64,000 nucleotides of DNA from Bacteroidota bacterium (GTDB lineage Bacteria > Bacteroidota > Bacteroidia > JABEUT01), in assembly GCA_021823405.1 (NCBI GenBank), contig JAKAOA010000002.1, positions 12,434 to 76,433 on the forward strand. Direction: 5' to 3'. This document shows positions 53,351 through 63,500 of this stretch, in pieces. How positions within the stretch are numbered: the first letter of the stretch is position 1; each line of letters starts with the position of its first letter. The notes under the pieces were generated by a model. The model was given only the letters and a program-made list of their open reading frames with translations. It had not been told where the DNA came from and made no database searches. The position numbers and the translations under genes were made by a program.

Positions 53351-53454
53351 GAACGGCATGTAAAAGTAGGACAAATCCGGGAATGCCAGATATGGAAAAA
53401 GTCAGGCAATTTTCGATTTTACTGGCAGATATTTTAATTAAGCCGCGTATCTTT

Positions 53455-53550
53455 GGGTATACACTTTTGGGGGTATTTTTTAGTTAAAAACTTGATATAC
53501 AGTATGTTAATGGTATACACAGGGTATACATTTGTATACCATTAGTATAC
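53455..53550. repeat. GGTATACC-box repeat, copy B: the 42-bp block shared with 24950-24992 plus four or five GTATAC-containing boxes in both orientations
   Basis: GGGTATACACTTTTGGGGGTATTTTTTAGTTAAAAACTTGAT is shared with copy A. GGTATACCATTAGTATACCC is the reverse complement of GGGTATACTAATGGATACC in copy A. Confidence 0.55.
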
Positions 53551-53551
53551 C

Positions 53552-54310
53552 CTATCGGGCTGTATCCTCTGCCGTCGCGAGCAAAATCTGTTCAATTTTC
53601 TTTAGCTGGTCGGGTCTTAATTTCTTTATCTCTTCCTGGCTCAAGCGCGTTTGATTAATCTGTATGTAGTTGTGTTGGTTTTCTACGTAATTTTTACTTG
53701 AACTACTCCCTGAATTTATGGCACCGGTTGCTTCAAGGAATAGTTTTATGGCTTTCATGTCGCCTCCCGATGCTTCACGGTATAATATGGCAAGTATTTT
53801 CCCGCTTACCAGTTTATAACGGTCCTTTTGTTCCAAATAGTTGGGATTATGTTCGTATTCCTTTAAATGTTTGTAAAGGGTTCTTCTGCTTACCCCCGTC
53901 ATCTCAAGCAGGTCCGATTTCCTTGGCATAATGCCGTGTTTGGCAATATACTTATTTATCGCCTGAACTATATTGGCATGGTTTGTTTCCCAAATATCGT
54001 CCTGGAAGCCGGCGTGCAGAACGGGAGCAACCCTTTCCAGAAATTCTTCCTGTTCCTCTCCTTTCAGTCGGTTTGCGTCACGGTTTATTTTATTAATTAA
54101 ATAATCCTTCTCTTCGTCGTTCAGTTGCAGGAAGTCCTTCCTTGTTATCTTTTCCTGCTCGTATAGGGCGTCTGCTTTCGCGAATAGGGCGGGACAGATG
54201 TCCTTTACCGGAGGATTGACGGTTGCAGGCTCGGAGGCATTGGAGCCGGGCGCGGCTGTTTTACCTGATACGGTTTGAATTTGTTGGCTGATGGCTTGAT
54301 TTGTTTCCAT
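53552..54310 (-). CDS. Hypothetical HTH-containing protein at the boundary of the accessory island
   Basis: Predicted HTH segment ...DLLEMTGVSRRTLYKHLKEY. Confidence 0.45.
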   Translation of the reverse strand: METNQAISQQIQTVSGKTAAPGSNASEPATVNPPVKDICPALFAKADALYEQEKITRKDFLQLNDEEKDYLINKINRDANRLKGEEQEEFLERVAPVLHAGFQDDIWETNHANIVQAINKYIAKHGIMPRKSDLLEMTGVSRRTLYKHLKEYEHNPNYLEQKDRYKLVSGKILAILYREASGGDMKAIKLFLEATGAINSGSSSSKNYVENQHNYIQINQTRLSQEEIKKLRPDQLKKIEQILLATAEDTAR

Positions 54311-54463
54311 GATGGTATGATTTTAAATGTTAATGATGACGCAAATATATACATTTAATGGCACATAATATATAATATGTTTATTTATTGAAAAAAGTAT
54401 TAAACAAATCCAATCATCTTTGGAAGATAGATTAGCAACGATAGGGTTGACTTACCCAACAAA

Positions 54464-54485
54464 AAAGCCCTATTTACAGGGCTTT
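54464..54485 (-). terminator. Intrinsic terminator hairpin AAAGCCCT-ATTTAC-AGGGCTTT (T-run on the minus strand). Copy 1 of a triplicated secA-terminator-like hairpin.
   Basis: The 38-bp block 54452-54489 is identical to 56768-56805. Confidence 0.6.
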
Positions 54486-54751
54486 AGTGTTACAGCGTAC
54501 CGGAAAAGTTCTTCAAAAGTTTCAAACTTTTCCTTCGGTTCCTTATGATGCTCCGGTAGTATTGATTTTGAAAAATGTTTTTCCCTGCCTTCTTTTCCTG
54601 AATAAATCTTTTTCTCAATGTTTGAAGCCCATACATAGCCGTGGTTACCAATCACAGTGCAAGAATAGTTTTCCCAGCTAAATAATCTTTCTATTTGGGT
54701 CTCACTAAATCCAAAATGAATTAATCTTTCATTTGTTAAGTCTTCAATCAT
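54470..54751 (-). CDS. Hypothetical small protein (93 aa), last gene of the cassette array. The C-terminus is encoded by the terminator hairpin.
   Basis: ORF only. No motif recognised. Confidence 0.3.
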   Translation of the reverse strand: MIEDLTNERLIHFGFSETQIERLFSWENYSCTVIGNHGYVWASNIEKKIYSGKEGREKHFSKSILPEHHKEPKEKFETFEELFRYAVTLKPCK

Positions 54752-54766
54752 TTAATATGTCTAACG

Positions 54767-55228
54767 TCATTGCTTTTTAATTGGTTTACCATTAGTATCA
54801 ACATCAATAGCATCATTACTATCGTCAATAAATGAGGTATAGAAATCCACCACCATATTATTTTCAAAACTAACTTCAAGAACATATTTATATTTTCCCG
54901 CCTCGCTAAAAGCATAATACGGGGCAAGAAAGTAATCAAATGTATAGTTCCCGCCATTGTGAATTATTTTATTGGGTTCTCCGAGAAATGCAAATATTTC
55001 TTTATTCGTATATTGTTTAATATTTATCCCATTAACCGATACTATTTTCCTTGTTATTGTGTCCTCTATCAAAGCACTGTCTCTGAAAAGGTTCTTTCCC
55101 AATGAATCAGCTTTCCACCTCGAAGAAAAATCACCATTGGTCATATTTTTAAAACCACCAATTAGATGAGGTTGCCCAAAAGCCACAACCGAAATGAAAG
55201 AGAACAATATGAGAAAAGCAGGCTTCAT
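54767..55228 (-). CDS. Secreted hypothetical protein (153 aa) sharing the signal peptide MKPAFLILFSFISVVAFGQ with the neighbouring MORN genes
   Basis: The first 55 nt of the CDS are identical to 55836-55890. Confidence 0.5.
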   Translation of the reverse strand: MKPAFLILFSFISVVAFGQPHLIGGFKNMTNGDFSSRWKADSLGKNLFRDSALIEDTITRKIVSVNGINIKQYTNKEIFAFLGEPNKIIHNGGNYTFDYFLAPYYAFSEAGKYKYVLEVSFENNMVVDFYTSFIDDSNDAIDVDTNGKPIKKQ

Positions 55229-55890
55229 TTTATTTCATTGCCGTTTTCATCGTAATTTTTTTGTTCCTGTAGAGTATCATTCCTGAAAAGTTTTTCACTC
55301 TTTAATTTTCCGTTTTCAAAGTACTCTTTTTCAACCCCATCTTTTTTGCTGTTCACTACTGGACTTTCTATTTTTAAATTACCATTTTCGTAATAACCCT
55401 TCTCAATTCCATTCTCTTCACCGTTCGCCCAGTGTCCTTCTACTTCCAGATTCCCATTTTCGTAATATCCTTTTAATGTTCCATTCCTTTTACCTTTTAA
55501 ATATTGTCTTTCATATTCTATTTTGCCGCTTTCATAGTATTGCCTTTCTGTGCCGGTTTCTTTTCCATTTTCATCGTAAGGAACCTCCAGGAATAATTTT
55601 CCTGTGAATTCGTCGTAAATTCTTCCTATTCCGCTCAATTTACCATTGTGGTAATTGCAAAGCATATAATATGGTGAATTGGTATCCTTTGAAATTTCTC
55701 CCCAATTATTTAGGTATTCCATCCATTCCCCTTCTTTTCTAAAAAGTTTTCGTTTGTTCTTAGCTTCAGCTTTAAATCTTGCTTCCCTGATTCTCCCGCT
55801 GTCATGGGGTTCTATCAGAGTTTTCAGAACTTCCTGCCCAAAAGCCACAACCGAAATGAAAGAGAACAATATGAGAAAAGCAGGCTTCAT
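55225..55890 (-). CDS. Secreted MORN-variant repeat protein (YwqK-family immunity-like)
   Basis: Repeats GEWMEY.., NGKLSGIGRIYDEF, SGKIEYERQYLKGKRNGTLKGYYENGNLEVEGHWANGEENGIEKGYYENGNLK. Start codon overlaps the upstream stop. Confidence 0.65.
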   Translation of the reverse strand: MKPAFLILFSFISVVAFGQEVLKTLIEPHDSGRIREARFKAEAKNKRKLFRKEGEWMEYLNNWGEISKDTNSPYYMLCNYHNGKLSGIGRIYDEFTGKLFLEVPYDENGKETGTERQYYESGKIEYERQYLKGKRNGTLKGYYENGNLEVEGHWANGEENGIEKGYYENGNLKIESPVVNSKKDGVEKEYFENGKLKSEKLFRNDTLQEQKNYDENGNEIK

Positions 55891-56549
55891 TTTATTCGAT
55901 TACCGTCCTTATATTCTACAACTCCTATTTTTTCTCCACGTTCATTATACCAAACATGCTCTCCTTCTAGCTTATCGTTCATAAATCTACCTTGACTTTC
56001 AATGTTACCATTTTTAAAATACCAAGTCCACATTCCAGTCTTTAAGCCCATTTTATACTCTCCTTCAATTTTTTTCCAACCATCAAATGATCTCCAAATA
56101 AAATTACCATTAAGTGAATCATCTTTAAGAGTACCATACCTAGTCTCTTCCTTTTGATAATCATATTCTTCAATCAAACCATTACGTTTCCCATCATGCC
56201 ATATTGAGAGTCGTATAAGTCTTCCTACGCTATCCCATTCTTTCCACTCACCTTCCTTATTATTGTTCTCATAAGAACCTTCTGACTGCTTCACCCCATT
56301 TGGATACCAGTTGCTCCATTTACCAATTAATGCCCCATTTTTAAAACAACCAACCGATTGAATTTTATTGTTAGAAAAATAGTAAGTCCATAAGCTGTCT
56401 TCTTTATTCAGTTTAAACCTGCCGATGCCTTTTAAATTATTTTTTAGGTATATTGTATCATTCTTTTTTTCAACGCCCAATGAATCCTGCTGCTGCCCAA
56501 AAGCCAAAAGCGAAATGAAAGAAAATAATATTAGTAAAGCAGGCTTCAT
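55887..56549 (-). CDS. Secreted MORN-variant repeat protein (YwqK-family immunity-like), paralog
   Basis: Signal peptide MKPALLILFSFISLLAFGQ. Repeats GEWKEWDSVGRL, NGLIEEYDY, KTGMWTWYFKNGNIESQGRF. Confidence 0.65.
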   Translation of the reverse strand: MKPALLILFSFISLLAFGQQQDSLGVEKKNDTIYLKNNLKGIGRFKLNKEDSLWTYYFSNNKIQSVGCFKNGALIGKWSNWYPNGVKQSEGSYENNNKEGEWKEWDSVGRLIRLSIWHDGKRNGLIEEYDYQKEETRYGTLKDDSLNGNFIWRSFDGWKKIEGEYKMGLKTGMWTWYFKNGNIESQGRFMNDKLEGEHVWYNERGEKIGVVEYKDGNRIK

Positions 56550-56551
56550 TT

Positions 56552-56697
56552 TATTTCATTGCCGTTTTCATCGTAATTCTTTGTTGCCCGCTTTCATTGA
56601 CGGTTTCAATTGTCTGAAACGGCAATGCAATACGAATAGGCGTAACCTTTTTGCCGTCTTTATACTTCCCTTCCCAAATAAGTTCGGTCATGATTAA
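56552..56697 (-). pseudogene. Short ORF / 3' remnant of a further cassette gene. The 28-bp TTATTTCATTGCCGTTTTCATCGTAATT at its end is identical to the 3' end of the 55225-55890 gene but is read in another frame.
   Basis: Nucleotide identity of 56551-56578 with 55229-55256. Confidence 0.35.
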
Positions 56698-56779
56698 TTA
56701 TATCTGTGTTGAATTTACGGCGGGGAAATTAGTGAAAAAAGCATTTTCAATGTGTGCTTTGCAAAATTTACCCAACAAA

Positions 56780-56801
56780 AAAGCCCTATTTACAGGGCTT
56801 T
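56780..56801 (-). terminator. Intrinsic terminator hairpin AAAGCCCT-ATTTAC-AGGGCTTT, copy 2. Probably the original secA terminator displaced by the insertion.
   Basis: Identical to copy 1. About 75 percent similar over roughly 90 bp to the secA-proximal region 63428-63520. Confidence 0.6.
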
Positions 56802-56843
56802 AGTGCAGTTCAGTATAAAATCAGTATATCTTTAGTTTGCGGC

Positions 56844-56860
56844 AGTTACTTACCGTGGCA
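56844..56860. repeat. attL core: 17-bp copy of the secA 3' terminus (reverse complement encodes NCHGK-stop)
   Basis: Identical to 63501-63517. Confidence 0.7.
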
Positions 56861-56910
56861 AAAACTATTTATACCTAATTCTATTGGATTGTAGCGTTTT
56901 GAGGTACAAA

Positions 56911-56932
56911 TAGGGTACAAAATAACTCAAAA
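56911..56932. repeat. Two GGTACAAA arm-type direct repeats (GAGGTACAAATAGGGTACAAAA), left arm
   Basis: The 22-bp string is identical to 63359-63380. Confidence 0.65.
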
Positions 56933-57089
56933 ATATCATTGGGAAAATGTTGCATAGAGTATTTCATTAGTTTGAAATTCAATTTGCTTTGAAATATTTA
57001 CCTTTTGAGAATCCGTGTTTTCTTTTGGTATTAATTTTCCCATTATCTTACCAAAAGACCTAATGGCTGATGGGGATGAATAATTCTTT

Positions 57090-57494
57090 TCAACCACTTG
57101 TAATAGTAAAAAGTTGTTTGTCTTTTTCATAAGCATATATTTTTTCAGCTATAATTAAGTAAACTATTACTTTCCAAATGCTTTCAAAATCTGAAAGTTT
57201 AAGATGTTTTTCCCTTTTTAATTGTATAAATTTTTGATAATCAGTTTCCCTAATATAATTTAATATACCGATGGTGTTGTCTATATTATTGTTAGTGAAA
57301 TATACCGCATACGCTGTTTTACCTGTACCCTTATCACCAATAATAAAATACGTAGATTGTTTCTTTATTTTATATAAAAATTCATTCTCTATAAATATTT
57401 TATTGAATATCTCTCTATTTTCTTTTTTTTTGTAATTCTCAGCATCATTAAATCCGAGATACAATTTTCCAATTGGAATTTTTTGCTTTTCCAT
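57090..57494 (-). CDS. P-loop NTPase (Walker A GDKGTGKT). Apparently disrupted: the reading continues in the +1 frame as ORF 56936-57136.
   Basis: Walker A motif. The overlapping out-of-frame ORF shares sequence through a homopolymer-rich segment at 57095-57130. Confidence 0.45.
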   Translation of the reverse strand: MEKQKIPIGKLYLGFNDAENYKKKENREIFNKIFIENEFLYKIKKQSTYFIIGDKGTGKTAYAVYFTNNNIDNTIGILNYIRETDYQKFIQLKREKHLKLSDFESIWKVIVYLIIAEKIYAYEKDKQLFTITSG

Positions 57495-57496
57495 AT

Positions 57497-58399
57497 TTAA
57501 TAAAATTTGATTTTATTCTGAATCAAATAAGGTTCTATCCTGTTTTTAGCGAGTTTTACATAGTCAGGACTAATATCGTAACCGACAAAATTTCTTTCAG
57601 ATTTTAGTGCAGAAATAGCAGTCGTCCCACTACCCATAAAAATATCAAGAATATTATCTCCTTTCAATGAATATAGCTGTATAAGACGATAAGGTAATTC
57701 TTCAGGAAACGGTGCAGGGTGTCCAATTTTCCTTGCACTTTCCGTATTCATGCTCCATATTGATTTTGTCCATTCCATGAATTGCTCTTTGGTAATAGTA
57801 TCCTTCTTCCCATTGGCTTTTCTTTGATAATCGCCTTTTGAAAATACTAAAATATATTCGTGTGTATCTCTTAATACCGGATTAGTAGCACTTTTCCAAC
57901 TACCCCAAGCCATTGAAACACCTGCACCTGCACCTTTAACCCAAATTATTTCGCCCCTCATTTTAAAGCCAATATCATTCATCATTTTAGATATATGGTC
58001 TGAAAGTGGAATATATGGTTTGCGTCCAAGATTGGCGACATTAATACATACTCTTCCCCCATTGACTAAAACCCTGAAAGTTTCAGTAAAAGAATTTTTA
58101 AGCAGGGTTAAATATTCTTGCAAAGTCAAATTATTGTCATATTCTTTTGTAACGTTATAAGGAGGTGAGGTAATCATTAAATGAATAGAATTGTCGGGTA
58201 ACTCTTTCATGTTTTCCGCCGTTCCTAAAATAAATGTATTTAAGTATTCTTTTGGAACTGAATTTTCGTTTGTGTTAATTTTCTTTTCTCCATTTATTAC
58301 AGAATACAGTTTAGAATTGTAAAACTTAGAGCTATCATGGTTTATACGTCCCCCTGTTCCGAATGAACTGGTCTTTGTGCCTGCTATTCTTGTTCCCAT
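57497..58399 (-). CDS. DNA methyltransferase, beta-class amino-MTase (motif IV SPPY precedes the C-terminal FxGxG), likely N4-cytosine specific
   Basis: MITSPPYNV catalytic motif. C-terminal DIFMGSGTT SAM-binding motif. Confidence 0.75.
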   Translation of the reverse strand: MGTRIAGTKTSSFGTGGRINHDSSKFYNSKLYSVINGEKKINTNENSVPKEYLNTFILGTAENMKELPDNSIHLMITSPPYNVTKEYDNNLTLQEYLTLLKNSFTETFRVLVNGGRVCINVANLGRKPYIPLSDHISKMMNDIGFKMRGEIIWVKGAGAGVSMAWGSWKSATNPVLRDTHEYILVFSKGDYQRKANGKKDTITKEQFMEWTKSIWSMNTESARKIGHPAPFPEELPYRLIQLYSLKGDNILDIFMGSGTTAISALKSERNFVGYDISPDYVKLAKNRIEPYLIQNKIKFY

Positions 58400-59031
58400 A
58401 ATTCAATCCATCTTTTGAAAGGTTTATATTCAATAGCTTCTTTATGCCAATTAATTGCAATTTTTAATGTTTCAGGTTGCGACAATAAATATTTCATTGC
58501 TTTTCCGGTCATTTCCACACCACGAGGGTTTGTCCCTTCCTTTGGTAATTTTATGTATTCCTTACGTCCTATTGTTTCAAGAGCTTTAATTTGCGTTTCT
58601 TTTGGAATGTAATAAAACCCGCCGCCGTTACTCCAGTTAATTTGAATAAAAATCATGTCGCATCCAGGATTATATTTTGCGCTAAACTCCTTTGCTTTTG
58701 CAGCATCAACAGTCCAAACCAACTTTACTCCATTTACCGCTCCTGTAATTGTCTTTATTGAAATAGGGCAACCAAATACCTTAACGTCCATTTCTGTTTC
58801 GGTGGTTGGTATTTCAGTTTCAACATTTGTAGTACCAAATTTATATAAAAGAAATGCAACTATTATCCTTTCTCTAATTGTTCCAACTTCCATTCCAATT
58901 TTACCAGCTCTTGAACTTTCAAGTTCGGCAATATGAAATAATTTTGGAAGTGTATTTTGAATTTTTAATATGGTCTCTTTTTCTTTAAAAATACCTTGAA
59001 TATTTGCCTTCATCGTGTAAATATTTTTCAC
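58384..59031 (-). CDS. Candidate type II restriction endonuclease partner of the methyltransferase (uncharacterised, 215 aa)
   Basis: 16-bp overlap with the MTase start. Possible (D/E)xK segment EMDVK. No other recognisable domain. Confidence 0.4.
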   Translation of the reverse strand: MKNIYTMKANIQGIFKEKETILKIQNTLPKLFHIAELESSRAGKIGMEVGTIRERIIVAFLLYKFGTTNVETEIPTTETEMDVKVFGCPISIKTITGAVNGVKLVWTVDAAKAKEFSAKYNPGCDMIFIQINWSNGGGFYYIPKETQIKALETIGRKEYIKLPKEGTNPRGVEMTGKAMKYLLSQPETLKIAINWHKEAIEYKPFKRWIELWEQE

Positions 59032-59289
59032 AAAGTAAGCAAAATTTATCCAAAATAATTTCTTTCTGTTAATAAATATACCTATGAACTAAGCATTAAC
59101 CCGCCCCCCTTCATAATATTGCACATTTTCCAAACGTAAATCTGCCGCCAAATGAAAATAATAATTCTTTTTCCCGAAAATAGAAGGTGCAATAATATCC
59201 TCCGATTATTCCACCCCGCCCTTATCAAAAAAATACCCTGCCCCGCCCTGTACGGTTTGGGTAGTAATTCTTTTTCACAAGGTCTTTGA

Positions 59290-60357
59290 TTAATTTAAAA
59301 CCGTGTCAATACAGTTTTCTAACAGGGATTCCAGTTCCGGCGGCTTTGAAAAGCCAATAAGCGGAAAATCTAAGTCATCATTAATATAGTCGCCCGTTTT
59401 CGGGTCTAAGTGCCATATTTTATAATCCCCTACAGGTGTGAATGTTACTTTTTTGGGCTGTTCAGGTAGAGTAAAACCAAAACCTTCAAAAACGTGCTTT
59501 TTATCCAGTGCTTTTAAAATATTATAAAGTGCGTGGGCGTATATTGTAGGGGCTGCCATTCCTTGCAATTTTTTATCATTATCCGGCTCGGTGAATATTT
59601 TTCCGCAATACTTAATTAATTCAATTAACGCTCCTTGCATATTCCATACTGGCTTTACCTTTTGTGCTCCTGGGTTTGCATATTTCAAAGTCCATAGTTT
59701 ACACCATTCCTTTTTAAGAGTGTCGCCTATTTCCTTATTCTTAACTATGATATGGAAATGTGGGTTGTAAGTATGCTTTTCAGGGTTAAATCCACACTCT
59801 AACGTCCTTATCCCTATTAACTTTTTACATTTTCCTTTTTTATAACCTCTGTCATATTTGTCAATGATTACAGCAATAGCCCGACACATACCGTCAATAT
59901 ATTTTTTTAAGTTTTTGACTTTTTGCGCTTTTACTGTTAGTGTTACAAAATAAGCGTTTCCCCATTCGTTTTGAAAATAGGGATAGTATCGGTTCAATAA
60001 GTCAGCTTTGCGGTTACCGCAACATAACGGACAAAATCGCAGCTTACAATATTTCCCGTGTAGCTTTCCCCCAGTTGTATAGATTTTACCTAAACAATGG
60101 TAAGCGTTCCAACACTGTTTAATGAAATCATAATCCCTGTATTCTTTTGCCACGTCAATAAGTTTTAGCACTAAGGCGTTACTAATCATTCTCCTTTTAG
60201 CCAACTTTTGTAACCCTGTATTGTCGGCAATATCTTTTCCTTTCCCCTTAACTATTATTACAGGGTTTCGGGAAGGTTTGACATATAGAGGTGTACGGTG
60301 AACTGCTAATGTATAGATTTCCTTCCCCAAAGGGTTTCGTTTTCGCTCTATTCTCAC
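59290..60357 (-). CDS. rep: Rolling-circle replication initiator / HUH endonuclease with a Cys-rich zinc-finger-like segment
   Basis: Three RCR motifs in order: FVTLTV, HTYNPHFHIIV (HUH) and LIELIKYCGK (YxxK). Cys cluster CKLRFCPLCC. Confidence 0.7.
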   Translation of the reverse strand: MRIERKRNPLGKEIYTLAVHRTPLYVKPSRNPVIIVKGKGKDIADNTGLQKLAKRRMISNALVLKLIDVAKEYRDYDFIKQCWNAYHCLGKIYTTGGKLHGKYCKLRFCPLCCGNRKADLLNRYYPYFQNEWGNAYFVTLTVKAQKVKNLKKYIDGMCRAIAVIIDKYDRGYKKGKCKKLIGIRTLECGFNPEKHTYNPHFHIIVKNKEIGDTLKKEWCKLWTLKYANPGAQKVKPVWNMQGALIELIKYCGKIFTEPDNDKKLQGMAAPTIYAHALYNILKALDKKHVFEGFGFTLPEQPKKVTFTPVGDYKIWHLDPKTGDYINDDLDFPLIGFSKPPELESLLENCIDTVLN

Positions 60358-60359
60358 AG

Positions 60360-60692
60360 CTACCTTCTTTTACCCTTTACATAGTCCTTTGCTTCGGCGG
60401 CTATTTCTGTAACCGTTTTTTTACGCCCAGCCTTTATATATTCCATCAAATCTTGCCTTGAGAAATACAATCGGTGGGAACGCTTACATACTGGGATTTC
60501 AGCTTTGTGTACTTTGGTGTACAGGGTAGCTTTAGAAAGTTTTAGAAACTCTGCGGCCTGCTCAATGGTTAAAAGCTCATCGGCTTCGGGCTGAGGCTCA
60601 CCACTCCTTTCAAGTAATAACCGCTTTATCTCACTTACTTCATTAGTAAGCTGGGTAACGGCTTGGGGTAAATTTTCAAATGTGATTTCCAT
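60360..60692 (-). CDS. Excisionase-family helix-turn-helix DNA-binding protein (xis-like)
   Basis: HTH LTIEQAAEFLKLSKATLYTKVHKAEIP typical of Bacteroidetes mobile-element excisionase/HTH-17 proteins. Adjacent to int and rep. Confidence 0.65.
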   Translation of the reverse strand: MEITFENLPQAVTQLTNEVSEIKRLLLERSGEPQPEADELLTIEQAAEFLKLSKATLYTKVHKAEIPVCKRSHRLYFSRQDLMEYIKAGRKKTVTEIAAEAKDYVKGKRR

Positions 60693-60765
60693 TGTACTAT
60701 CAGTTTTAAATTTGATAGTGCAACAGTATAGGGGGCTTTTAGGGGCAACAATAGGGGCGTACGCC

Positions 60766-62184
60766 CTATTTTAGTTTTTGGTAGTCGTTTTGTACCGTTT
60801 CTTTATGCAGGTGTGCCGTATAGCGTTCCTTATTTTCCGTAGTGTTTTTAAGCAATGAACTGATATTACCCTTTACTGCCCTGCCATCTTTATCAGAGTT
60901 AAGCCACTTGCCAATTTCCTTGTTCAGTTTATATTTTGTCTGCAAATGGTTTTTCTCTAAATGCTTTAAAAAGCCCAAATAATCAAACATTGCTATACAG
61001 TAAGGTAGTTCATTTGAGCTTATCAATTCTACCAACTTTTCTTTATTTTCTGCCGTTAATTGCTTGACCATTGGTAAATCAAAGAAGCCATATTTACCAA
61101 ATACAATCTTTAATTTATCCGCTTTCGTTTCTGTTTGCTTGGGCGGTGCGGGTTTTAATATGGGAATAAGTTCATCAATAAACCTTTTTTCATCAGCATA
61201 CCATTTCTTTAACATTTTCCTGTATCGGTGTTCCTCATTGGGTGAACTATTTTTATACCCTTGTTGAAGTTCCAATTTCCTATTGTTTATTATGAGTTCC
61301 AGTTTGATTTTATTTGCATCCGTAATAAGCCCCTTTTCGTATAATTTCAACCCGTTTATCTGCGTTAAAAGATTATCAGTTAAGCTTATTAATGCTTCAA
61401 ATAGGCTGCCTTTTGTATGCAGCTTTGCTTTTGCAAATCCACTATACTTGTTTACCTCTGGCACACTGTTCAATATAGGTAATTGATTTTCAAAATGCTG
61501 TTTAAGGGGGCTGAAAAAGCTTAATTCAAAGGGGAATATCCTAAGCCAGTCCTGATAAACCTTGTATAAAACATTCAAATCAGTTGATGTTGCAGTCGGT
61601 TCTGAAATATCTATTCTATGTGGTAGCTCGCTTTGAAATAGCGTCTTTGAAGGCTGATTGGCCTCTGTTACGGTTTCTTCTGTGATAGAGTACTTGTCAA
61701 TAAATTCAGTCAATTTTTTCACTTTAGACAATTCACCCTGAGTTAAGTCGCCTTTGGGCTTTTTAATAAGCTTTTTTACTTTATCTAAATACAAGTGCAG
61801 CCCTACGGCTGGCTGCCCAAAACTTGTAACATTATACTCAATATAGTCCGTTATTTCTTTATACCAATTAGGTGAATCTATCTGTTTAGAAATATGGTAT
61901 TCAGTATATGAAAGCTGCTTAATAATCTTGTCAGCAATACCATTATAGTTATCTTTCAGAAACCACCACTTACCATCGTATTCTTTATGTATTGCGCAGC
62001 AATTTGGGAATTTCTCAAACCATTTTACTGCCTCATCATAAACGCCTTTATGAAACGGACAGCAATTAGGTAACTGCTCTTTTGTTTCGGGATTGGCGGG
62101 GGGTTCATAACCTGCGGGAGGCTTTACCTCAAATGCTTGAATAAAAAAGTTTGCAGCATCAATTTCAACAAAGGGTTTGTCCAT
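60766..62184 (-). CDS. Hypothetical 472-aa element protein with Cys/His cluster CCPFHKG...CCAIHKEY
   Basis: ORF between int and xis. No recognised domain. Confidence 0.4.
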   Translation of the reverse strand: MDKPFVEIDAANFFIQAFEVKPPAGYEPPANPETKEQLPNCCPFHKGVYDEAVKWFEKFPNCCAIHKEYDGKWWFLKDNYNGIADKIIKQLSYTEYHISKQIDSPNWYKEITDYIEYNVTSFGQPAVGLHLYLDKVKKLIKKPKGDLTQGELSKVKKLTEFIDKYSITEETVTEANQPSKTLFQSELPHRIDISEPTATSTDLNVLYKVYQDWLRIFPFELSFFSPLKQHFENQLPILNSVPEVNKYSGFAKAKLHTKGSLFEALISLTDNLLTQINGLKLYEKGLITDANKIKLELIINNRKLELQQGYKNSSPNEEHRYRKMLKKWYADEKRFIDELIPILKPAPPKQTETKADKLKIVFGKYGFFDLPMVKQLTAENKEKLVELISSNELPYCIAMFDYLGFLKHLEKNHLQTKYKLNKEIGKWLNSDKDGRAVKGNISSLLKNTTENKERYTAHLHKETVQNDYQKLK

Positions 62185-62195
62185 TGCAATGTTCT

Positions 62196-63311
62196 TTACA
62201 AGTCCAGTTTTATTTTATCAGCCGCTTCCCGTTTCGTTTGGTCAATAATCTTAGCGTAAATCATAGTTGTTTTTAGTTCACGGTGTCCCAGTAATTTTGA
62301 TACCGTAAATATATCAGTTCCCTTACTAAGCTGTAATGTTGCGTAGGTGTGCCTAAAGCTATGAAAGGTTATATTTTTTGTAATGCCCGCTTTAAGTACC
62401 CAGCGTTTTAAATGAAAATTCATAAATGCAGAGTATTGTAGCCCCTCAAAAACGCTTTCATCAGGTAGCCCAGGTTTGCCCAATATATTATACGCCTGTT
62501 CTGAAATTGGTAATACCTCAACCCCCTTTGTTTTCTTTTGCCTGAAACGCAAATAATAACCTTCGGCCTTGCTATGCTGTACCTCTGCCCAAGTAAGCTT
62601 TTGAATATCTGAAAATCTTAACCCTGTAAGCGAAGCAAATAAGGCGGCCTGTTTAAGTAATGGTAAACTACATTCGGTTTTTGCCAAAGTGTTCAATTCT
62701 TCCATTGTAAGAAACTGTCTTTCAGTTTCAGCCTCCTTTATTCTTTCGACTTTTGCACTAATATCAGATTTTATCCGCCCGTCTTTGTAGGCTTGCTTTA
62801 AAGCCGCTTTTAATTTGTTAAAGTATGAAAAGGCCGTATTCTGCGATATAGGTAGCTTACTTCTTATTCGTGGTTCTTTTAGAAGGTATGCTTTGAAGTC
62901 ATTGCAGAATTTCGGGGTAATGTCTGTAAACCGTATAGTACCCCCGCTAAATTCTTTTAAGTAATGCAGGGCGCAAAGCCATATTTCACGGTTTCGCTGG
63001 TTATGTTTATCAGCTAATTCTTTAAAGTAGTCAACAAAATTAGCGTTAAGGTCATTCGTAGAAAGAAACCCATACTGACCGTTTTGAATTTCAATTTGTC
63101 GGGTTGCCCGTATATTTTCTGCAAGGGCTTTTGTATCTATGTTATGCTGTTTGTCAAAGGGTGTCTTTGGCTTATCATACAAATGAAGCCCTAAAAACTC
63201 CCTTCGTGTAAGTTCTCCCGTGTCAGGATGAGTTATAGGTGGGTAGAAATCTAAATACAGGCTTTTACGGTTGCCTGAAATGTCTTTTGTTCTTAGTTTA
63301 ACTTTTGTCAT
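62196..63311 (-). CDS. int: Tyrosine site-specific integrase (phage-integrase family)
   Basis: C-terminal catalytic region HSFRHTYATLQLSKGTDIFTVSKLLGHRELKTTMIYAKI (H-x-x-R ... Y). Confidence 0.9.
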   Translation of the reverse strand: MTKVKLRTKDISGNRKSLYLDFYPPITHPDTGELTRREFLGLHLYDKPKTPFDKQHNIDTKALAENIRATRQIEIQNGQYGFLSTNDLNANFVDYFKELADKHNQRNREIWLCALHYLKEFSGGTIRFTDITPKFCNDFKAYLLKEPRIRSKLPISQNTAFSYFNKLKAALKQAYKDGRIKSDISAKVERIKEAETERQFLTMEELNTLAKTECSLPLLKQAALFASLTGLRFSDIQKLTWAEVQHSKAEGYYLRFRQKKTKGVEVLPISEQAYNILGKPGLPDESVFEGLQYSAFMNFHLKRWVLKAGITKNITFHSFRHTYATLQLSKGTDIFTVSKLLGHRELKTTMIYAKIIDQTKREAADKIKLDL

Positions 63312-63329
63312 GGCTTAAAGTGTTATTGA

Positions 63330-63379
63330 GGTACAAACGAGGTACAAAAAATAATTATGAGGTACAAATAGGGTACAAA
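63330..63379. repeat. Four GGTACAAA arm-type direct repeats immediately upstream of int (right arm)
   Basis: GGTACAAA at 63330, 63341, 63361 and 63372. Confidence 0.65.
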
Positions 63380-63435
63380 AGTAAACAAAATAAGCAACTA
63401 TTGGAACAAAACAGGTATTAAATATGAGCAATAAA

Positions 63436-63458
63436 AAAGCCCTCTATTAAAGGGCTTT
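63436..63458 (-). terminator. Intrinsic terminator of secA (stem AAAGCCCT / AGGGCTTT, loop CTATTAA, then TTTTTTAT on the minus strand). Copy 3, the variant hairpin.
   Basis: Located 45-70 bp downstream of the secA stop. Confidence 0.65.
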
Positions 63459-63500
63459 ATTGGGGTTTACTATAAAATTAGTATAAAACTACTTTGTGTT

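Follow-up and report, generated by a model that had tools for sequence, protein, structure and literature searches.

A Rep_1-family rolling-circle initiator and its candidate nick site in a modular integrative element of Bacteroidota

The 64,000-nucleotide (nt) stretch of the Bacteroidota contig JAKAOA010000002.1 that was analysed here (the window) was found to contain a low-GC island in which a minus-strand gene, rep, encodes a HUH rolling-circle initiator of the family Rep_1. In the reading that is preferred here, with a probability of about 0.6, this initiator is the replication module of an integrative element of about 10 kb, the C-rich boxes next to rep are not its origin, and the likeliest nick site is a short word within the opening 20 codons of rep (60304-60317). 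The coordinates of the features are collected in Table 1.

Judged by its sequence, the open reading frame (ORF) at 59290-60357 is a genuine Rep_1 HUH rolling-circle initiator of the pC194/pUB110 type, for which nicking activity is predicted. The Pfam family Rep_1 was matched with 45.5 bits (gathering cut-off 33.2, E = 8e-12) and was the only Pfam family above threshold, and no match was found to the MOB families (MOBP/Q/V/C and others) or in NCBIfam. The three motifs of rolling-circle replication (RCR) that the initial annotation had read in the canonical order, FVTLTV, HFHIIV and ELIKYCGK, were all present, together with the Cys-rich segment that it had described. Among 20 homologues (41-66% identity) the residues T139/L140/T141, E187, H200/H202 and E246/K249/Y250/K253 were found to be invariant, as were the four cysteines C88, C104, C109 and C112. 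The catalytic tyrosine, the glutamate four residues earlier and a second glutamate are Y214/E210/E142 in pC194 and Y241/E237/E163 in RepU of pUB110 (PMC5703833), and in a pairwise alignment with RepU the residues Y250, E246 and E187 fell on Y241, E237 and E163. The earlier call of a HUH Rep was borne out by this retained triad and by the Rep_1 match. The C-x4-C-x2-C cluster was common to Rep, pUB110 RepU and the Rep of pBFP35.

The homologues of Rep numbered 488, and PF01446 was present in all 120 among the matches listed. Some were labelled 'protein rep', and the majority lay on long chromosomal Bacteroidota contigs. The nearest Reps of free plasmids were those of pBFP35-type plasmids, with just 28% identity, and no phage-borne relatives of Rep were found. 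The AlphaFold (AF2) model of Rep had a predicted local distance difference test (pLDDT) value of 82.8, and the N-terminal 33 residues were predicted to be disordered.

The island is flanked by glycosyltransferase genes on one side and by the 3′ end of secA on the other. Its minus strand was found to contain a tyrosine integrase gene followed by the genes of p472, a HTH_17 (helix-turn-helix, HTH) protein, Rep and a restriction-modification (R-M) pair. The stop codon of the HTH_17 gene lies 2 nt ahead of the rep start, and a HTH-like ORF was present directly upstream of rep in 59/83 loci. The order int, p472, HTH, rep recurred in many of 79 related loci, and p472 always stood between the integrase and HTH_17 genes. 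The closer p472 homologues were found to lie in the same int-p472-HTH_17 backbone with a D5_N/DUF5906 primase-helicase, an AAA_25 helicase or a DUF3987 protein instead of Rep_1, each replacement module being paired with a Zn_ribbon_16/DUF6371 protein. Because the backbones of relatives hold primase or helicase modules at this place, Rep_1 occupies an interchangeable replication slot, and these gene orders make Rep the replication module in an integrative element of modular build and variable cargo, about 10 kb long, from Bacteroidota.

No MOB-family relaxase was matched in Pfam among the island proteins scanned, which left Rep as the sole nickase. The p472 family comprised at least 460 proteins, nearly all without a Pfam domain or annotation (one has PF19509). 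Its members are all-alpha proteins in which a C-C...H...C-C...H pattern near the N-terminus does not vary. A fold search with p472 gave no structural match, and nothing in its predicted structure, which has no relaxase-like fold, suggests that it is a relaxase.

The candidate nick site was found with a codon-choice test, in which the codon uniformity at conserved residues was compared with the family's own codon usage in 79 rep genes aligned by codon. For the 159 conserved columns the observed uniformity was 0.435 versus 0.412 expected, whereas T16 (ACA in 61/66), L17 (TTA in 68/70), A18 (GCA in 56/56) and T22 (ACA in 64/70) reached 0.84-1.00 versus 0.22-0.29 expected. The other outlier was S252 (0.61 versus 0.19 expected), with an AGY/TCN split. 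In an anchored alignment of 77 loci the core around these codons was found to read T-N-N-ATACATTAG(C)A-(C/G)AAA-N2-GGGACA on the rep-sense strand, and the bases T36, A39, T40, A41, C42, T44, T45, A46, G47 and C60 were each present in 76-77 of the 77 loci, although the proteins are only about 40% identical. In the window the core reads TCTATACATTAGCAGTTCACCGTACA and spans rep codons 14-22, its T-N-N-ATACATTAGCA part being the one at 60304-60317.

The word ACATTAGCA occurred 75 times in 2.4 Mb, mostly at the core position, versus about 9 occurrences expected. The core was single-copy per rep gene and in the window; it was absent from the backbones without Rep_1 and from pBFP35, and in general no second (terminus) copy was present elsewhere in the elements. 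In 12/76 loci no in-frame ATG, GTG or TTG was found between the upstream stop codon and the core, so that there the core is conserved without being translated; in the remaining loci Rep has an N-terminal extension of 2 to 64 codons that is predicted to be disordered. Second copies of the full extended core were seen on the same strand, 3-9 kb away, in the loci L035 (~4848), L071 (~16785) and L078 (~5200), where they probably mark extra or tandem rep copies. A one-mismatch core, GATATACATTAGAA, was seen 19 nt into the Zn_ribbon_16/DUF6371 gene of a Rep_1-less backbone relative (L089, 11228 / L090, 7210), which is within chance expectation, although a location so near the 5′ end of a replication gene is curious. 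A DNA-level constraint at the 3′ end of rep (NCID motif, TGTATTGAYAC) was rejected, the codons there varying freely, and when CTTGATA was sought at a constant spacing from rep, weak bumps were all that appeared.

The double-strand origin (dso) of pC194 is TCTTTCTTATCTTG|ATAATA (PMC5037232). On the rep-sense strand, the pUB110 record was found to contain TTCTTATCTTGATACATATAG about 180 nt upstream of rep and the pC194 record TTCTTATCTTGATAATAAGG about 190 nt upstream of rep. Nine of the loci read CTTGATACAT at the core, with ten bases identical to the pUB110 nick region (CTTG|ATACAT) in the same strand polarity, and the invariant part of the core begins at the base that follows the classical nick. 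Homology of the core with the plasmid nick sites is suggested by these shared bases. The core at 60304-60317 is the best candidate and the most likely nick site of Rep, and by analogy with CTTG|ATA a nick is predicted between 60315 and 60314. In one locus (L002; 1-64, 859-913) the 55 nt immediately 5′ of the core exactly duplicate a stretch from inside rep, NILSAMKGKRIFERFGFN; this copy ends in TTTAAT, mimicking T-N-N-A-T, and is joined directly to ACATTAGCA. Such a junction would be expected if Rep had nicked and joined DNA in an aberrant initiation or termination, but it could also have arisen from the assembly graph.

In the proposed mechanism the integrase, with the HTH_17 protein, would excise the island. 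Tyr250 of Rep, with Glu246 and Glu187, would then nick the rep-sense strand at the core. On the analogy of pC194 and pUB110, the 3′ end would prime leading-strand synthesis, which would pass through rep, then through the cargo, and on round the circle to end at the regenerated core. The same nick could double as a transfer origin, since ICEBs1 can use Rep_1 proteins of Firmicutes plasmids as relaxases and the island has no MOB relaxase of its own. Replication after excision, or mobilisation by Rep nicking, with a candidate site at 60292-60317, is a reasonable inference from these parallels.

Several observations weigh against this reading. A Foldseek search of the Rep model against solved structures gave no significant match, HUH proteins included. 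The window itself reads TCTATACAT at the core, that is TCT|ATACATTAGCA and not CTTG|ATA, and a profile built from 77 core sites did not retrieve the pUB110 and pC194 nick regions, the resemblance extending over 7-10 nt. The GC-rich hairpin just upstream of the core was weak, with strong stems in 23% of loci versus 7% of controls and only 3 bp in the window. The L002 junction comes from one metagenomic contig, and the 55 nt of its repeat are equal to a k-mer length that assemblers often use. No single-strand origin (sso) was identified in the element, nor was an excised circle seen. The hairpin just past the rep stop codon is suggestive only as a terminator (z ~ -2.2).

The C-rich boxes and the two-copy repeat of the intergenic stretch 59032-59289 were present where they had been reported earlier. 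The stretch had been placed upstream of rep; as rep is on the minus strand, it is downstream (3′) of rep and upstream of the ThaI-type restriction gene. Nor is it G+C-rich as described, with 36.0% GC versus 35.6% in the island, although its plus strand is strongly C-skewed (63 C, 30 G). Over both strands of the window CCCGCCC was found at chance level (8 copies versus 7 +/- 2.6 expected). The cluster of three same-strand copies within 150 bp was non-random, with P ~0.001 under the stretch's own composition and 0/2000 simulations under the island composition (P < 0.0005); two exact copies of the 9-mer CCCCGCCCT were likewise seen in 0/2000 simulations, and the 12-nt TAATTCTTTTTC pair was marginal (P ~0.035).

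More than one box within 300 nt downstream of rep was found in the window alone (3 copies) among 79 loci, and a single copy in 2/78 others. In relatives of 65%, 62% and 52% identity the downstream sequence could not be aligned to that of the window and contained no boxes. In a relative of 81% identity (L092) the DNA homology ran up to the rep stop codon and ended there, with no box in the 82 nt available past the stop; the first two boxes of the window lie 41-76 nt past it. Because neither homology nor boxes are kept past the stop codon, the rep module ends there, and the stretch is part of the variable side that holds the cargo. Loci with a ThaI-type gene contained a single incidental box copy in 3/76 cases and nothing similar to the stretch, so that travel of the boxes with the ThaI-type R-M cassette was ruled out by these 76 loci, as was a conserved G/C-rich box feature downstream of rep by the locus comparisons. 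On this comparative basis the C-rich boxes are an orphan, one-off, non-random feature of variable junction DNA and not the origin of Rep. Their absence from homologous elements is an outcome that the initial annotation had itself named as refuting its origin proposal.

Two k-mers enriched downstream of rep, TATATTTG and TATTTTTG, were rejected as a nick site, as they fit the Bacteroidota -7 promoter box, TAnnTTTG. An unconstrained Gibbs motif search downstream of rep gave a purine-rich coding signal only. The stretch presumably holds the promoter of the R-M genes; a sigma-70 promoter scan scored at shuffle level, the sigma-70 model being ill-suited to this phylum. The hairpin contained a GC core, TACCC...GGGTA, formed partly by box 3 and followed by T7, and the A-tract beside it constitutes one AATTCTTTTTC copy. 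An imperfect direct repeat of 20 nt (17/20; rep-sense ACyTTGTGAAAAAkAwTTAC; P ~0.015) was found at 59017-59036 and 59264-59283. Its copies bracket the intergenic stretch, one just past the rep stop codon and the other at the start of the restriction gene, and it could reflect the way in which the cargo became attached.

The region between p472 and the HTH gene (60692-60768) was found to contain a palindrome, TAGGGCGTACGCCCCTA, followed by three copies of GCCCCTA at a spacing of 10-12 bp (about one helical turn) and by the inverted repeat TTGCACTATCA-N10-TGATAGTACAA, which overlaps the HTH start codon. Nearly all loci had, between the HTH gene and its upstream neighbour, short repeats of a sequence peculiar to the locus and, after them, an inverted repeat that borders on the HTH start codon or includes it. 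The inverted repeat had 8.0 paired bases versus 6.1 in controls, with at least 8 in 55% versus 13% of loci (p = 6e-16). The architecture was general across about 55 loci, and the repeat words varied between loci. A near-identical region was present in two loci without Rep_1, L086 (8336-8417) and L088 (8402-8477); the elements sharing it have p472 proteins only 55-63% identical and different replication modules. The region was therefore rejected as an origin specific to Rep, although its layout resembles the dso-copG-repB arrangement of pMV158; it is taken as a regulatory site of the backbone, and the HTH or the p472 protein probably uses it as an operator. Two further exact copies of the operator half-site ATAGGGCG were seen at about 54165-54195, 22 nt apart and on the strand opposite to the operator, inside a 252-amino-acid (aa) ORF at 53552-54310; about 0.3 copies of this 8-mer are expected per island.

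Under the earlier proposal, Rep would have a double-strand origin at 59032-59289 with the boxes and the AATTCTTTTTC repeats as its iterons. The boxes cluster non-randomly, element-specific iterons are frequent in plasmids, and the boxes share AGGGCG with the backbone operator half-site TAGGGCG. Against this, the array is missing from the 78 other loci and from the 81% relative, whose homology ends at the stop codon, and no boxes were found in the other operator-sharing elements (L050, L086, L088). Locus-specific upstream words showed no enrichment downstream of rep across loci, and the stretch lies on the 3′ side of rep, not on the 5′ side as the dso does in pUB110 and pC194; iterons are very improbable here. 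The same stretch was weighed as a single-strand origin for lagging-strand synthesis. The rep-sense strand, which would be the displaced one, folds better than its shuffles (z ~ -2.2), whereas the opposite strand does not (z -0.4). That z-score is weak, however, the stretch matches nothing in Rfam and is not kept in any relative, and it is located just downstream of the candidate nick, where an sso usually lies just upstream of the dso (PMC5037232). Such a role is hardly to be expected.

The remaining explanations concern the core and the role of Rep. RCR plasmids commonly place copy-control targets in the rep mRNA leader or first codons, which is where the core lies, and a RNA-level or regulatory element (for translation initiation, as an antisense-RNA target or as a regulator site) would also suit the disordered N-terminus of Rep and the failure of the core profile to find the classical dso sequences. 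However, antisense targets need no sequence fixed across a phylum, and the core stays invariant where the proteins share about 40% identity, agrees on the correct strand with the bases next to the pUB110 nick and is the crossover point in L002, all of which makes a purely regulatory core unlikely. It is also conceivable, though doubtful, that Rep is mainly a relaxase and the element an integrative and mobilizable element (IME) that uses the nick site as an origin of transfer with a co-resident conjugative element and does not replicate autonomously. For ICEBs1, the Rep_1 initiators of plasmids from Firmicutes have a second role as relaxases (PMC5704250, PMC5357655), the island proteins scanned gave no MOB-family match, and p472 has no relaxase-like fold in its model. 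On the other side, Rep stands in a slot that relatives fill with primase or helicase modules, the closest free plasmid, pBFP35, retains a separate MOBV relaxase besides this type of Rep, and the streptococcal elements with Rep-type relaxases usually have TcpA, which was not seen here. The preferred reading, a replication initiator that nicks at the core, could be carried further to a combined replication and transfer origin, by which Bacteroidota islands would maintain themselves by rolling circle and spread without a MOB relaxase; this extension is rather unlikely. If it holds, Rep_1 mobility would exist in a phylum whose described mobilizable elements are MobP/MobV only, in islands that often carry defence cargo, and the orphan boxes, which are G-rich on the displaced strand, could act as an accessory site peculiar to this element, for example in lagging-strand priming or structure formation.

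Table 1. Positions of the features of the island within the window
Feature	Position	Strand	Basis or remark
rep, 355-aa Rep_1 (PF01446) HUH rolling-circle initiator	59290..60357	minus	ORF listing and Pfam
rep motif I, FVTLTV	59932-59949	minus	
rep HxH motif, HFHIIV	59743-59760	minus	
rep ExxKYxxK motif, ELIKYCGK	59599-59622	minus	
rep Cys cluster, C88...C104-x4-C109-x2-C112	60022-60096	minus	
Core T-N-N-ATACATTAGCA-N-AAA-N2-GGGACA, candidate dso/nick site	60292..60317	minus	codon-choice test and 77-locus alignment
Intergenic stretch, variable junction of rep module and cargo	59032..59289	.	sequence and locus comparison
C-rich box CCCGCCCCCC	59100-59109	plus	sequence
C-rich boxes CCCCGCCCT, two copies	59214-59222, 59241-59249	plus	sequence
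Repeat TAATTCTTTTTC, two copies	59162-59173, 59265-59276		sequence
Terminator-like hairpin just past rep stop	59227..59263	minus	folding, z ~ -2.2
Backbone regulatory region, between p472 and HTH gene	60692..60768	minus	locus comparison
HTH_17/excisionase-family DNA-binding protein, 110 aa	60360..60692	minus	family profiles
p472, conserved backbone protein (472 aa)	60766..62184	minus	homologue search
Tyrosine integrase (Phage_int_SAM_5 + Phage_integrase)	62196..63311	minus	Pfam
ThaI-type restriction endonuclease (cargo)	58384-59031	minus	family profile; listed GTG start
N6_N4 DNA methyltransferase (cargo)	57497-58399	minus	family profile
Low-GC island, approximate extent	53400..63500	.	35.6% GC vs ~48% host
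End repeats GAGGTACAAA, four copies	63328-63379		beside integrase gene
End repeats GGTATAC(A), five to six copies	~53455-53555		far island end

The repeat clusters at both ends of the island look like arm-type recombinase sites from their sequence, and the sole candidate for an attachment (att) core was the imperfect 15-mer TATAmmATTAGTATA at 53535 and 63471. For the ThaI-type restriction gene, gene callers choose the ATG at 59013 and not the listed GTG. The further cargo was found to contain a truncated Sll1717-type ATPase gene, three genes of MORN-repeat lipoprotein-like paralogues and two genes of small or HTH proteins. The 134-aa ORF at 57090-57494 (minus) matched just the first ~104 of the 454 positions of the Sll1717-family P-loop ATPase profile and is probably a truncated defence-type gene. 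The three tandem genes at 54767-56549 (minus) encode near-identical signal peptides (MKPAFLILFSFISVVAFGQ...), with MORN_2 repeats in two of them; by this likeness they are paralogous lipoprotein-like cargo. The 252-aa ORF at 53552-54310 (minus), at the far island end, had a weak match to a PHROG terminase small subunit (E = 5e-5), and its Pfam matches were HTH families, every one below threshold. The terminase match probably reflects a shared HTH; a satellite-like packaging role may be considered. In the locus L081 (5629-8647) p472-like, HTH and Rep genes were seen between a host two-component system and a SprB-like gene with no integrase nearby, and this copy may be a stranded remnant.

Small integrative islands with R-M or other defence genes are common in Bacteroidota. 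A Rep_1 initiator is now placed in the interchangeable replication slot of one such island family. The 26-nt candidate nick site, with its conservation across the phylum, gives a testable target, and ATACATTAGCA beside a Rep_1 gene provides a sequence tag by which these elements can be located. As the boxes illustrate, a repeat array may look striking in one locus and yet be an orphan without comparative support. Mobilizable elements of Bacteroidetes known so far carry MobP/MobV relaxases, and integrated elements with Rep-type nickases are already known in Firmicutes, as are 'integrated plasmids' with HUH Reps more widely. No description of the anatomy of this Rep_1 family or of the embedded core was found in the literature searches made, which is not proof of absence. 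The element is ordinary in kind and its protein type known, and the embedded core is a modestly new detail.

Compared with known systems, RepU of pUB110 and RepA of pC194, both from Firmicutes plasmids, share with Rep the Pfam family, the motif order, the triad and the C-x4-C-x2-C cluster (triad and cluster aligned with RepU), as well as the nick-proximal T-N-N-ATACAT on the rep-sense strand. RepU is only 24% identical to this Rep, however, and pUB110 and pC194 are free plasmids, whereas this rep is chromosomal and integrated together with an integrase. The candidate nick word lies here inside the first rep codons and there about 180-190 nt upstream of rep, and the conserved 5′ half, TCTTATCTTG, is not kept in the core. 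The 5.6-kb pBFP35-type plasmids of Bacteroides/Phocaeicola ('protein rep') are nearer in host, being from Bacteroidota, and their Rep was found to contain the same Cys cluster and motifs at 28% identity over 70% of the protein. Unlike the island, they are autonomous, with their own MOBV relaxase and a toxin-antitoxin pair, and lack the ATACATTAGCA core; their non-coding regions were tried as an origin model and nothing comparable was found.

In the 'integrated plasmids' and in the HUH-Rep cluster from Bacteroidetes that Kazlauskas et al. (2019) noted, HUH Reps are likewise found in site-specifically integrated elements. That Bacteroidetes-dominated cluster, which has no plasmid or virus members and may or may not be this Rep family, was taken as probable integrated mobile genetic elements without a description of its anatomy (PMC6668415). 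The streptococcal IMEs (Rep_2, Rep_trans/MobT, PHA00330) and ICEBs1 with NicK similarly combine a tyrosine integrase with a HUH/Rep-type nickase and have no canonical MOB relaxase, and dual roles in replication and transfer have been shown or proposed for them (PMC5357655, PMC5704250). The streptococcal IMEs differ in that Rep_1 is not among their listed relaxase families, in the phylum and in the backbone, which here is p472 with HTH_17, and the TcpA-type coupling protein that is usual in them was not seen in this island. In pT181 (Rep_trans) the Rep is unrelated in fold and family and the origin is a cruciform, but this origin lies within the rep coding region (PMC5703833), as is proposed for the core described here.

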